64,000 bases of DNA from an uncultured Candidatus Saccharibacteria bacterium (GTDB lineage Bacteria; Patescibacteriota; Minisyncoccia; UBA6257; 2-01-FULL-56-20): positions 66,684-130,683 of the forward strand of contig CAYIOP010000002.1 in assembly GCA_964365185.1 (NCBI GenBank). The letters run 5' to 3'. Position 1 is the stretch's first letter; the number at the start of each line of letters is the position of its first letter. Positions 58,227 through 58,918 of this stretch are shown here, one piece after another. The notes beneath the pieces were generated by a model, which saw nothing but the letters and a program-made list of their open reading frames with translations, was not told where the DNA came from and did no database searches. A program made the position numbers and the translations under genes.

Positions 58227-58526
58227 ATGAAAACCTATCATTTTAAACCTGCACGCTTAGGCATCTTTGCCATCTATTACCCCACCACTCCTTTAGGTTG
58301 GCTTATTACTCTTATTCTCGCTACCGCTTTTGTTTTATTATTTTTAAAAACCGATCAAAATTCTCATTCCATAAGCGACACGCTTATTAATTTTGCTCCG
58401 TGGGCCATTGCCATCCTTTTGATTTTCGATTTGCTCTGTTTTCGCCTCGGCGAATATCCCAGTTGGTGGAGAAAAAGCCCTCCTAGCGCCTCTACCTCTA
58501 ACGGGGTTGACAACCCTAAGATTTAG
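58227..58526 (+). CDS. small hypothetical membrane protein
   Basis: 99 aa with 2-3 TM helices. Its 3' end overlaps direct-repeat copy 1. Confidence 0.3.
   Translation: MKTYHFKPARLGIFAIYYPTTPLGWLITLILATAFVLLFLKTDQNSHSISDTLINFAPWAIAILLIFDLLCFRLGEYPSWWRKSPPSASTSNGVDNPKI
58488..58512 (+). repeat. 25-nt direct repeat copy 1 (gcctctacctctaacggggttgaca) ending in a -35-like TTGACA
   Basis: Identical 25-mer at 58894-58918. TTGACA is followed 17 nt later by TAAAAA, upstream of the peptide gene at 58590. Confidence 0.6.
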
Positions 58527-58589
58527 GAATAAAAATAAGATATAGTTAGAAAAGGTCGATTTTATAAGCTTTATCTATTAATTTAATAA

Positions 58590-58787
58590 ATGACTAAAAA
58601 AATCGTTCTTTTTGTATTACTAGCCGTAGTTATTGGCGCAGGCGTTAACTTACTTATTGGTGCTAACAGCGCCGAGGCCATTGGAAATAACGCCCCAAAC
58701 CCGAAAATTTGCCAATGGATTCCGGGTGATCCGTCCTTTTGGAGCTGCCCCGGAACAAATCCAGGAACTTACAATTTCGGTAATTAA
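58590..58787 (+). CDS. small secreted Cys-containing peptide precursor
   Basis: Signal peptide MTKKIVLFVLLAVVIGAGVNLLIGANSAEA followed by a 35-aa mature region with two Cys (ICQW...SCPG). A perfect terminator lies downstream. Confidence 0.45.
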   Translation: MTKKIVLFVLLAVVIGAGVNLLIGANSAEAIGNNAPNPKICQWIPGDPSFWSCPGTNPGTYNFGN

Positions 58788-58817
58788 AAATAAGTATTTG
58801 ATTAGTCGATTTAAACT

Positions 58818-58842
58818 AAAAATGCCCCTGAGGGGCATTTTT
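58818..58842 (+). terminator. intrinsic terminator
   Basis: aaaaatgcccc-tga-ggggcattttt, a perfect palindromic hairpin with flanking A and T runs. Confidence 0.75.
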
Positions 58843-58893
58843 AGTTCCAAGTTTGCATTTGACCCCGTTAGAGGTCGCGAGGGCTCACAGCAT

Positions 58894-58918
58894 GCCTCTA
58901 CCTCTAACGGGGTTGACA
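58894..58918 (+). repeat. 25-nt direct repeat copy 2, with an inverted partial copy at 58863-58875
   Basis: gcctctacctctaacggggttgaca. TTGACA-17-TAAATT forms a promoter for the 59003 gene. The upstream ccccgttagaggt is the reverse complement of acctctaacgggg. Confidence 0.6.

Follow-up and report, generated by a model that had tools for sequence, protein, structure and literature searches.

A promoter-adjacent repeat in a Saccharibacteria contig belongs to a family of palindromic elements spread through Patescibacteria

The repeat and the genes around it

The window analysed here, a stretch of DNA 64 kb in length, contains two copies of a 25-nt repeat, which adjoin the promoter-like sites of a small secreted-peptide gene and a large putative lipoprotein gene. 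The copies lie 406 bp apart. The features referred to below are as follows, the ORF and element boundaries having been taken from the ORF list, from repeat and core searches, from folding and from reading of the sequence.

58227–58526, plus strand: ORF for a 99-aa membrane protein; its final 13 codons cross the copy 1 remnant and the −35 box
58488–58506, plus strand: copy 1 remnant, comprising the last 6 loop nt (GCCTCT) and the right arm ACCTCTAACGGGG
58507–58512, plus strand: TTGACA, the −35 of the promoter-like site ahead of the peptide gene; copy 1 has the TTGA of this box as its right direct-repeat flank
58530–58536, plus strand: −10-like TAAAAA(T), 17–18 nt past the −35; TAAAAT in the sister strain L005
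58590–58787, plus strand: gene for the secreted-peptide precursor, 65 aa (ORF list)
58818–58842, plus strand: peptide-gene terminator of the canonical intrinsic type, AAAAATGCCCC-TGA-GGGGCATTTTT (read from sequence)
58859–58862, plus strand: TTGA, the left direct-repeat flank of copy 2 (read from sequence)
58863–58875, plus strand: left arm of copy 2, CCCCGTTAGAGGT (core search, folding)
58876–58899, plus strand: 24-nt loop of copy 2, CGCGAGGGCTCACAGCATGCCTCT, from a loop family that recurs across samples
58900–58912, plus strand: right arm of copy 2, ACCTCTAACGGGG (repeat and core searches, folding)
58913–58918, plus strand: TTGACA, the −35 of the promoter-like site ahead of the lipoprotein gene; copy 2 has the TTGA of this box as its right direct-repeat flank
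58936–58941, plus strand: −10-like TAAATT, 17 nt past the −35
59003–60706, plus strand: putative lipoprotein gene, 567 aa, with an Ig/PKD-like stretch at about residues 330–430 (ORF list)
36980–37112, no strand assigned: second element of the window, TAAA, CCCCGTAGGAAAT, 99 nt, ATTTCCTACGGGG, TAAA; not adjoining a −35 box

All four contigs compared at the second element belong to one strain.

An exact search agrees with the first-pass annotation that the 25-mer GCCTCTACCTCTAACGGGGTTGACA occurs at exactly two sites, 58488–58512 and 58894–58918, and no match was found across shuffles of the sequence even when up to 3 mismatches were tolerated. Its core ACCTCTAACGGGG occurs three times (58494 and 58900 on the plus strand, 58863 on the minus strand) against 0.61 expected. 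The inverted half-copy that had been reported 24 nt upstream of copy 2 is an arm of 13–14 nt: 58862–58875 is complementary to 58900–58913 and fully paired, with 24 nt separating the 13-nt cores. As single-stranded DNA, copy 2 folds with −17.8 kcal/mol on either strand (z of about −6), and folding of copy 1 gave no hairpin (z = 0.05). The complete copy is 59 bp long and reads TTGA, CCCCGTTAGAGGT, the 24-nt loop, ACCTCTAACGGGG, TTGA-CA.

Copy 1 is complete in the sister strain L005, where the sequence is 52 nt longer than in the window strain. The window strain has lost the left flank, the left arm and most of the loop, and it is because of this deletion that copy 1 has no inverted partner. The two copies of the window/L005 pair are identical at 56 of 59 nt, and the similarity between copies has its left limit exactly at TGA and its right limit exactly at TTGACA. 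The deletion also affects the membrane-protein ORF, which in L005 ends at the TGA of the left flank of the element; in the window strain, lacking the 52 nt, it continues to a TAG at 58524.

Each copy ends in a TTGACA followed at 17 nt by a −10-like hexamer, as the first-pass annotation had noted, and both TTGACA hexamers score as sigma-70-like sites. The site at 58507 can be read as TTGACA-18-AAAAAT or TTGACA-17-TAAAAA, and that at 58913 as TTGACA-17-TAAATT. The two ORFs predicted downstream are also present. Judged by eye, the 65-aa product begins with a signal-peptide-like segment ending in AEA, and the 35 residues after it include two Cys, as in the secreted peptide that had been proposed. 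A Pfam search with this peptide gave no match, and a word-indexed protein search returned only the peptide itself; its gene is present on 5 Hainich contigs. BLAST found 58814–58846, which spans the terminator of the peptide gene, to be self-complementary. The lipoprotein reading of the 567-aa product likewise agrees with a lipobox-like LIVSC seen by inspection near its start. The family of this protein is small and uncharacterised, with about 14 distant relatives. The gene had been described as GC-richer and possibly horizontally acquired; its GC content is 0.40–0.47, parts of the window elsewhere reach 0.50, and composition gives no support to such an origin.

Distribution, anatomy and promoter context of the family

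The first-pass annotation had taken confinement of the motif to this locus, should that be found together with a lack of transcripts starting past the TTGACA elements, as grounds for giving up a shared cis-element, and the motif does occur elsewhere. The exact 19-mer ACCTCTAACGGGGTTGACA is found at 49 places in GTDB genomes, against about 4 by chance. Of these matches, 40 are labelled CPR and represent at least 10 named lineages, and 41 of the 49 have an inverted arm 2–115 nt upstream. Four contigs with the element are binned as Planctomycetota, Pirellulales or Gammaproteobacteria and are candidates for mis-binning. Metagenomes yielded more than 120 further elements of this class. The repeat is thus part of a family spread through Patescibacteria and is not a private operator of two genes. 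Exact 19-mers common to several classes imply either frequent DNA exchange among CPR bacteria or strong constraint on the sequence.

The unit shared by the family is TTGA-(CCCCG-stem-loop-stem′-CGGGG)-TTGACA-17 nt-TATAAT. The termini, 5′-CCCCG...CGGGG-3′, are conserved, and the sub-terminal arms are complementary yet variable. The stem scan fixed only TTGACCCCG...CGGGGTTGACA and left 8 inner positions per arm free; at these positions 766 of the 952 pairs (80%) in 119 elements are complementary, compared with 386±18 in shuffles. There are 74 distinct stems among the 119 elements, with two different stems on a single contig (L128), and the most frequent arm, CCCCGTTAGA, recurs widely. G.T mismatches are about as frequent as A.C mismatches (52 and 49), which indicates that the symmetry belongs to the DNA and not to one RNA strand.

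The elements are non-coding and range from 28 to about 160 bp, with about a third below 50 bp and the smallest at 28–30 bp. Their interiors span 2 to about 134 nt, with lengths clustering at 2–4, 12–15 and 21–25 nt, and most copies have interiors unrelated to one another. The 24-nt loop of copy 2 is of a family that recurs at L005, L024, L106, L122, L130, L137, L161 and L167, and unrelated loci and samples have this family in common. In L120 the loop of this family is inverted. The element occurs in either orientation. Copy number seems low, at a few per tens of kb. Rfam searches left the element unmatched, both at the gathering threshold in the window and 38 loci and with E up to 10 in 58300–59100; the matches in the window and the 38 loci were only to tRNA, rRNA, a group I intron and the L10 leader. 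No description of the element turned up in literature searches on the sequence, on promoter motifs of CPR bacteria or on MITEs in this group.

Many of the elements stand in a promoter-like context. A −10 matching TATAAT at 5 or more of 6 positions with a spacing of 16–18 follows 42% of elements, whereas control positions show one in 2.2% of cases, so that the layout is, from sequence, that of a sigma-70-type promoter (TTGACA-like −35, 16–18 nt spacer, TATAAT-like −10). Because both collection scans demanded TTGACA, part of the association with −35 boxes stems from how the elements were sampled. In a small unbiased sample of about 19 elements, 5–6 lie at TTGAC[A/T] and 3 at TTTAC or TTCAC. Among 181 promoter-like sites with sufficient upstream sequence, drawn from 1.2 Mb, an abutting hairpin is present at 58 of the 70 sites preceded by GGGG and at 2 of the 111 others (background 4/169); one of these 2 is a variant with a compensated terminal clamp, TCCCG/CGGGA. 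The element is in this sense a discrete unit. Eight other strong promoter-like sites in the window are without the element.

The genes downstream are unrelated to each other and include groES (six times), tuf, rplC, rpsL, rpoB, nusA and nrdJ. Where groES or hrcA comes next, CIRCE operators lie downstream of the element. In some of the long loops (11 of 47) the left TTGACC is followed by a −10 at a suitable distance, so that two promoters stand in tandem, an arrangement conserved in the orthologues L092, L118 and L141.

Insertion, mobility and alternative explanations

Several observations bear on the mobility of these elements. The left flank, which was not part of the query, is TTGA at 32 of 41 genome loci. 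Unselected elements show other matching flanks as well (TTTA/TTTA twice, TTCA/TTCA, TGAA/TGAA and TAAA/TAAA), and 4-nt flanks match in about 10 of 42 unselected palindromes against 0.16 expected. The flanks are mismatched in L009, L013 and L142, and in L017 and L166 they are inverted instead of direct. In L059 an element flanked by TAAA is nested within one flanked by TTCA, and L100 and L064 hold tandem arrays with a common TTGA. Copies with homologous interiors occur within one genome in the window/L005 pair, in L009/L013 (8 kb apart) and in L034/L042 (15 kb apart).

Orthologous promoters occur with and without the element. It is present at six groES promoters and missing from the window's own and from 7 of relatives whose GroES proteins are 82–92% identical, i.e. 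from 8 of 8 unselected ones. At the rpmB promoter L141 is filled and L092 is empty, with homology restarting exactly at TTGACA. Empty orthologous promoters already have TTGACA. A filled and empty pair in which the upstream flank is conserved too was not found among the orthologous promoters compared. The 1.2 Mb of loci contained neither a transposase nor an autonomous partner that could be recognised, and no long-range pair of arms encloses an ORF; unpaired 10-mer matches there are at chance level.

Together, this suggests that the 25-nt repeats are, on balance probably, the right ends of two small, non-autonomous, MITE-like palindromic elements of a Patescibacteria-wide family. The element would insert at a TNNA tetranucleotide, chiefly TTGA, the tetranucleotide with which a TTGACA −35 box begins. 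Duplication of TTGA would then keep an intact TTGACA on the downstream side, and the resident promoter would survive with a hairpin-forming element occupying about −36 to −90. We infer transposition itself, the preference for TTGA as a target and any effect on transcription from the patterns described here. Copy 1 adjoins the promoter of the peptide gene and copy 2 that of the lipoprotein gene; what the two genes have in common is therefore an element family and not a dedicated regulator.

The explanation that competes most closely with MITE-like insertion is a non-mobile, selected cis-element, in which a GC-clamped DNA hairpin or cruciform caps strong Patescibacteria promoters. It may serve as an upstream boundary or insulator, as a supercoil sensor or as a site for a structure-specific factor, and it could also be a formerly mobile element that was later domesticated. 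We regard this as somewhat unlikely. Orthologous copies with homologous loops (L080/L107, L092/L118) keep their stems paired through compensatory changes as the loops drift, so that the stem may have a structural role, and these changes, taken with the clusters of loop length, suggest ongoing structural constraint, unlike a decaying insertion. Quasi-palindrome template switching, however, could yield paired changes without selection. Loop lengths are periodic at about 10.5 bp (R = 0.30), which would place both TTGAC motifs on one helix face, but the copies in this test are non-independent. The presence of the element at promoters of highly expressed genes, such as the six groES promoters and those of tuf, rplC, rpsL, rpoB, nusA and nrdJ, the tandem promoters kept among orthologues and the exact sequence conserved across CPR classes all fit a promoter structure of this kind. 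Its absence from all eight unselected groES promoters and from eight other strong sites of the window does not, nor do the deleted left arm of window copy 1 and the copies situated away from any −35 box (window position 36984, L142 and L146). Varied direct-repeat flanks and nesting are likewise unexpected for a purely regulatory hairpin.

It is improbable that the palindrome is an RNA hairpin, acting as terminator or stabiliser at the 3′ end of the upstream transcript and overlapping the next promoter by chance. An upstream ORF of 80 codons or more, running in the same direction, stops no further than 30 nt from the left arm in 30 of the 119 elements, and for 10 of them its stop codon is the TGA of the left TTGA flank; the stem base is GC-rich, and the TTGA flanks could supply U-A and G.U pairs on the plus strand. 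The stem is followed not by a U-tract but by UUGACA and then usually A, many upstream genes are divergent, and canonical terminators are in use, one of them just upstream of copy 2 (58818–58842). In long-loop copies the terminator of the upstream gene lies between the arms, which would thus not be on one RNA; the equal frequency of G.T and A.C mismatches and the lack of a match among Rfam families also count against an RNA function. Still less probable is the palindromic operator or UP-like site of the first-pass annotation, through which a dimeric regulator would co-regulate the peptide and lipoprotein genes. The 25 identical nt at −36 to −48 of both promoters lie where a class II activator or the C-terminal domain of the RNA polymerase alpha subunit would bind, and the wide recurrence of the arm CCCCGTTAGA could reflect recognition by a protein. 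Against this, the genes that follow the module in many Patescibacteria classes number in the dozens, are mostly of the housekeeping kind, and are unrelated and without a common function, copy 1 has no second half-site, and the 74 stem sequences each pair only with their own partner, even inside one contig. As the stems vary but stay complementary, and the loops between them range over 2–134 nt, a fixed operator half-site is ruled out. What stands of the original regulatory claim is a shared cis-element fused to the −35 boxes; the dimeric-regulator operator does not. A local duplication or chance repeat private to the locus, for which the short distance between the copies might speak, has a negligible probability given the absence of the 25-mer from shuffles, the 49 matches to the 19-mer in other genomes, the more than 120 metagenome elements and the exact ends of the similarity at TGA and TTGACA.

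Other candidates were tried and rejected. The hairpin is followed by TTGACA and mostly A with no U-tract, and a terminator scan made no call, which excludes an intrinsic terminator. Three arms per 64 kb is a density far too low for a DNA-uptake sequence. The sole tRNA, a tRNA-Ser, is 2 kb away and unrelated, leaving no basis for a tRNA-derived sequence or attachment site. Regarding phage origin, the 19-mer is unmatched in IMG/VR and the generic pattern has 4 matches there; the two inspected, identical to the metagenome loci L071 and L126, look like chance matches in high-GC sequence. A 2026 preprint on TIGR-Tas arrays that mentions Patescibacteria and promoters shows no connection. The hairpin is confined to GGGG-preceded promoters and so is not a universal CPR promoter feature, and an a′-TTGA-a triple arrangement, with a third full arm upstream, is full-length at only a few loci.

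Patescibacteria make up a large part of bacterial diversity, and their promoters and mobile DNA are nearly uncharted. The signature TTGA-CCCCG...CGGGG-TTGACA would, as judged from sequence, point to where transcription of highly expressed genes probably begins in hundreds of uncultured genomes. Shared promoter repeats of such a kind should not be taken as locus-specific operators in annotation. If the insertion model is true, landing in a −35 box and rebuilding it amounts to a safe-site strategy, and would account for the survival of mobile DNA in genomes of only about 1 Mb, where intergenic space is scarce. A broader reading, which is possible but which we lean against, is that superphylum-wide palindromes home to the sigma-70 −35 box, rebuild it through TTGA duplication and stay as a paired cap. 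If true, this would need a CPR transposase or recombinase that recognises structure together with the CCCCG terminus, and would add a hitherto undescribed DNA-hairpin component to promoter architecture.

Comparison with known elements

MITEs are defined by terminal inverted repeats of at least 10–15 bp and target-site duplications of 2–10 bp, and prokaryotic examples are usually quoted as 50–800 bp (PMC11602168). The arms here, of 13–14 nt, fall within that definition, as do the direct flanks, which resemble target-site duplications with the exceptions of L009, L013, L017 and L142; related copies are dispersed and are present or absent at orthologous promoters. In the 1.2 Mb of loci, neither an autonomous element nor a transposase gene bounded by these terminal inverted repeats was seen. 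The elements are thus like generic IS-derived MITEs in their terminal inverted repeats, duplications, non-coding interiors, intergenic sites and dispersed and nested copies, but many copies are below 50 bp and the interiors are mostly unrelated. We know of no parent IS for the element; an IS1380-like one, which we take to end in CC and to produce a 4–5 bp duplication, is a conceivable candidate. To our knowledge, exact insertion at a −35 box has not been described as a family trait.

Correia elements are found in one genus and are 100–155 bp long, with fixed 26-bp terminal inverted repeats, a TA duplication and hundreds of copies. These elements (CREE, Neisseria) are likewise small palindromes with terminal inverted repeats and short direct flanks but without a known cognate transposase, and they are also intergenic and closely associated with promoters. 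The family described here differs in spanning many classes of the superphylum and lengths of 28 to about 160 bp, and in having only its 5-nt termini fixed, with covarying arms and a 4-nt TNNA flank (mostly TTGA). The ends and junctions of Correia elements are reported to supply −35 and −10 elements (Siddique et al., 2011, PMC3024310, as cited in PMC11602168). In the present family the −35 box would instead be regenerated from the flank and not supplied by the terminal inverted repeat.

The elements also share features with REPs and REPINs, being extragenic palindromes in inverted pairs with variable spacers and retained complementarity of the arms, as Bertels and Rainey reportedly described in 2011. 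REPs, which begin with a conserved 5′ GTAG, are restricted to single species or genera and number tens to hundreds of copies around a RAYT gene. Here, in contrast, both sides have TTGA as a direct flank, identical arms recur in different classes at low copy number, and a RAYT gene was not seen at the element loci. Integron attC sites are similar in being imperfect palindromes in which structure and stem base are conserved and the inner stem and loop vary, and the window has a small gene with a copy on either side. The attC order, however, is RYYYAAC...GTTRRRY, and that of the element is reversed, GTTAG...CTAAC. There is no integrase or cassette array among the neighbouring genes, and each copy adjoins a promoter, with essential housekeeping genes downstream.

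IS elements with outward-facing −35 boxes, such as IS1, IS2 and IS257, form hybrid promoters from their mobile end. The present elements resemble them in placing a mobile end beside a −35/−10 pair that would drive the neighbouring gene, but here the −35 box appears to be a duplicated target and not internal to the element.

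The repeat and its two genes

The 25-mer GCCTCTACCTCTAACGGGGTTGACA occurs exactly twice in the window, at 58488-58512 (copy 1) and 58894-58918 (copy 2), and had no match in shuffled sequence even at three mismatches. Its 13-nt core has a third, inverted occurrence at 58863-58875 (0.61 matches expected), and both TTGACA hexamers are followed after 17-18 nt by A/T-rich -10-like hexamers. The direct repeat, inverted half-copy and promoter hexamers described in the first-pass annotation are thereby borne out. Copy 2 and the inverted arm form a 14-bp stem with a 24-nt loop (-17.8 kcal/mol as single-stranded DNA on either strand; z about -6).

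Features around the two copies:
58590: peptide ORF, 65 aa, downstream of the promoter-like site at copy 1
58818-58842: canonical terminator, just upstream of copy 2
59003: lipoprotein ORF, 567 aa, downstream of the promoter-like site at copy 2

The 65-aa product is its own sole match in a word-indexed protein search and has no Pfam match; by inspection, it comprises a predicted signal peptide and a putative 35-residue mature part with two Cys. The 567-aa product also has no Pfam match, but has a lipobox-like N-terminus, some 14 distantly related proteins of similar length, and a stretch (residues 330-430) resembling Ig/PKD repeats. Its gene had been thought GC-richer, but the GC content is ordinary for the window. 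Matches to the window sequence come from the Hainich aquifer metagenome, on contigs of its 0.1-µm filter fraction, and GroES relatives are labelled Paceibacterota and Parcubacteria.

Distribution and covarying arms of the element

The motif also occurs well beyond this locus. A search for it had been proposed in the first-pass annotation; across GTDB species-representative genomes, the exact 19-mer ACCTCTAACGGGGTTGACA was found in 49 stretches, against a calculated chance expectation of about 4 in 596 Gb. Forty carry a Patescibacteria label or that of a named CPR lineage (Saccharibacteria, Kerfeld-, Komeili-, Jorgensen-, Doudna-, Vogel-, Moran-, Nealson- and Gribaldobacteria, Paceibacterota), five are unclassified, and four lie on short contigs binned to other phyla. 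Four element-bearing contigs from MAGs assigned to Planctomycetota, Gammaproteobacteria (two) and Pirellulales (L031, L036, L040 and L054, the last with three elements within 4.8 kb) are either mis-binned or place the element beyond the CPR. Flanks of the 19-mer loci are unrelated, save for a TATAAT-like hexamer about 17 nt after TTGACA. Of the 49, 41 have an inverted arm CCCCGTTAGAGGT at a distance of 2-115 nt upstream, and in 32 of these 41 the arm is preceded by TTGA, a direct rather than inverted copy of the right flank. The element is a palindrome, CCCCG-stem-loop-stem'-CGGGG, between TTGA and the TTGACA of a -35 box. Genes downstream have no function in common; those confirmed by Pfam include GroES, EF-Tu, L3, S12, RpoB, NusA, SpoVG, ribonucleotide reductase, topoisomerase I and HrcA, and others are toxin-antitoxin genes or encode secreted hypothetical proteins. 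Our literature search found no paper containing the sequence or describing such an element in the CPR.

A -10 matching at 5/6 or better at a spacing of 16-18 follows 42% of elements, compared with 2.2% of control positions. Promoter-like sites in 1.2 Mb of loci fall into two classes, and the element is discrete: sites preceded by GGGG abut a hairpin in 58 of 70 cases, whereas the others have A/T-rich upstream DNA and a hairpin in only 2/111 (background 4/169), one of these two being a compensated terminal-clamp variant. The element is absent from eight other strong promoter-like sites in the window.

A metagenome scan fixing only TTGACCCCG-N18-48-CGGGGTTGACA returned at least 120 loci. In the 119 non-redundant elements among the matches listed, the eight free inner positions per arm take 74 different sequences, and 766 of 952 positions pair with their own partner (386±18 with shuffled partners). 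Since each of these arms pairs with its own partner, ACCTCTAACGGGG is simply the commonest stem class; L128 carries two elements with different stems on one contig. Such varying, covarying arms rule out a fixed operator half-site. The earlier proposal of a co-regulating cis-element stands in part: the peptide and lipoprotein genes each lie behind a promoter with a copy of the same element, and have no dedicated regulator in common. Mismatches of the G.T and A.C types occur equally often (52 and 49), so the symmetry is a property of the duplex and not of one RNA strand; no Rfam family matches the element in the window or 38 loci.

Loop lengths in the 119 metagenome elements (L056-L175) form three clusters, of 2-4, 12-15 and 21-25 nt. 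Tested for a 10.5-bp period, which would set both TTGAC motifs on one helix face, they gave a Rayleigh R of 0.30, with significance overstated as the copies are not independent. The 24-nt loop family CGCGAGGGCTCGCAGCGTGCCTCT (window 58876-58899) is common to unrelated loci from several sites; its reverse orientation in L120 (1114-1174) would fit insertion in either orientation as well as inversion between the arms. A well-placed -10 follows the left TTGACC in 11 of 47 long loops, giving a tandem promoter. Many 20-27-nt loops open with a TGnTATAAT-like -10, 16-17 nt past the left TTGACC (L092, L118, L141, L133, L155, L103, L080, L107 and others); this sets a second promoter some 50 bp ahead of the main one, an arrangement kept in orthologues.

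Proposed insertion and rival readings

The best-supported reading is that the palindrome, whose anatomy is shown, is a non-autonomous element ending in CCCCG...CGGGG; its transposition, its preference for particular targets and any effect on transcription are inferred. It would insert at TNNA, preferentially TTGA. Where this tetranucleotide opens a TTGACA -35 box, duplication would rebuild the box downstream, and the promoter would survive, with the element lying upstream from about -36. This model accounts for five features: the junction falling exactly at TTGACA, the TTGA on the left, the element's discreteness, its patchy distribution, and its bias to consensus, highly expressed promoters, a bias partly imposed by queries containing TTGACA.

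Matching 4-nt flanks occur in about 10 of 42 palindromes unselected by any query (0.16 expected), including the non-TTGA direct repeats TTTA...TTTA(CA), TTTA...TTTA(CG), TTCA...TTCA(CC), TGAA...TGAA and TAAA...TAAA. One element of this class lies in the window:

36980-37112 with flanks (36984-37108 without): second window element, TAAA-CCCCGTAGGAAAT-99 nt-ATTTCCTACGGGG-TAAA

It is away from any -35 box, in an unusually gene-poor 1.2-kb stretch (36918-38133) between a glutaredoxin and a thioredoxin-reductase-like gene. At L059 (1270-1395) a TAAA-flanked element is nested inside a TTCA-flanked one, with a further partial arm within, and L100 and L064 hold tandem arrays sharing TTGA. Copies with homologous interiors recur within one genome (L009/L013, 8 kb apart; L034/L042, 15 kb apart; the two window copies). 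Six groES promoters are filled; the window groES promoter (44556-44640; TTGACA-17-TACACT with a perfect CIRCE at 44586-44612) is empty, as are seven more in relatives whose GroES is 82-92% identical. At rpmB, L141 carries the element in its promoter and L092 does not, and the two sequences become homologous again precisely at TTGACA. In the sister strain L005 (91% identical), copy 1 too is a full 59-nt element; the window strain has lost 52 nt there (left flank, left arm and most of the loop), and the 99-aa ORF upstream now continues through what is left.

In its behaviour the element is MITE-like: it has terminal inverted repeats, direct-repeat flanks, dispersed copies and both filled and empty sites. 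Its size fits only in part, and no cognate transposase was found in 1.2 Mb of loci. Correia elements of Neisseria, REP/REPIN elements and generic MITEs are its nearest analogues, and integron attC sites resemble it in architecture only; membership in the Correia, REP or attC families is rejected. The element is set apart by its superphylum-wide range with exact shared 19-mers, arms covarying around a fixed 5-nt terminus, and position exactly at the -35 box.

A selected structural role, as an insulator, cruciform or factor-binding site and perhaps of a domesticated element, is also possible, given that many copies are only 28-30 bp, that loop lengths cluster, that tandem promoters occur and that neither a transposase nor a full-length partner was found in 1.2 Mb of loci. 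Matching flanks are missing from some copies and inverted in others (L017 2708-2806 and L166 4331-4433), where a left-hand TGTCAA and a right-hand TTGAC(T/A) form back-to-back divergent -35 boxes with the palindrome between. Orthologous copies with homologous loops point the same way: L080/L107 differ by one paired stem change (A:T to G:C) and L092/L118 by three double ones, although quasi-palindrome template switching could also keep pairing without selection. That the hairpin is a terminator is unlikely, because no U-tract follows it, a canonical terminator already lies just upstream of copy 2, and, where loops are long, the terminator of the upstream gene itself falls between the two arms.

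Further observations at the loci

After the 52-nt deletion, the 99-aa ORF has gained, in the region 58476-58526, a new 13-residue C-terminus, SASTSNGVDNPKI, encoded by element remnant and -35 box; an upstream ORF in L148 likewise reads through an entire element. The Hainich H41 contig L006 (462-519, coverage 2) has the peptide gene and copy 2, then a right flank unlike that of the window, which reflects either a third genomic context (with the peptide gene moved by a composite of two elements) or a low-coverage chimera assembled over the 59-nt repeat. The window also holds two groEL paralogues (44992-46650 and 50515-52179), and adjacent small HicB-like and HicA-like ORFs (54581-55015) that look like a toxin-antitoxin module, with a kinase-like gene just downstream. 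Direct repeats at 48304-48425/49357-49478 and 39709-39780/40963-41034 (81-91% identical) mark the 5' ends of tandem paralogous genes and bear no relation to the element.
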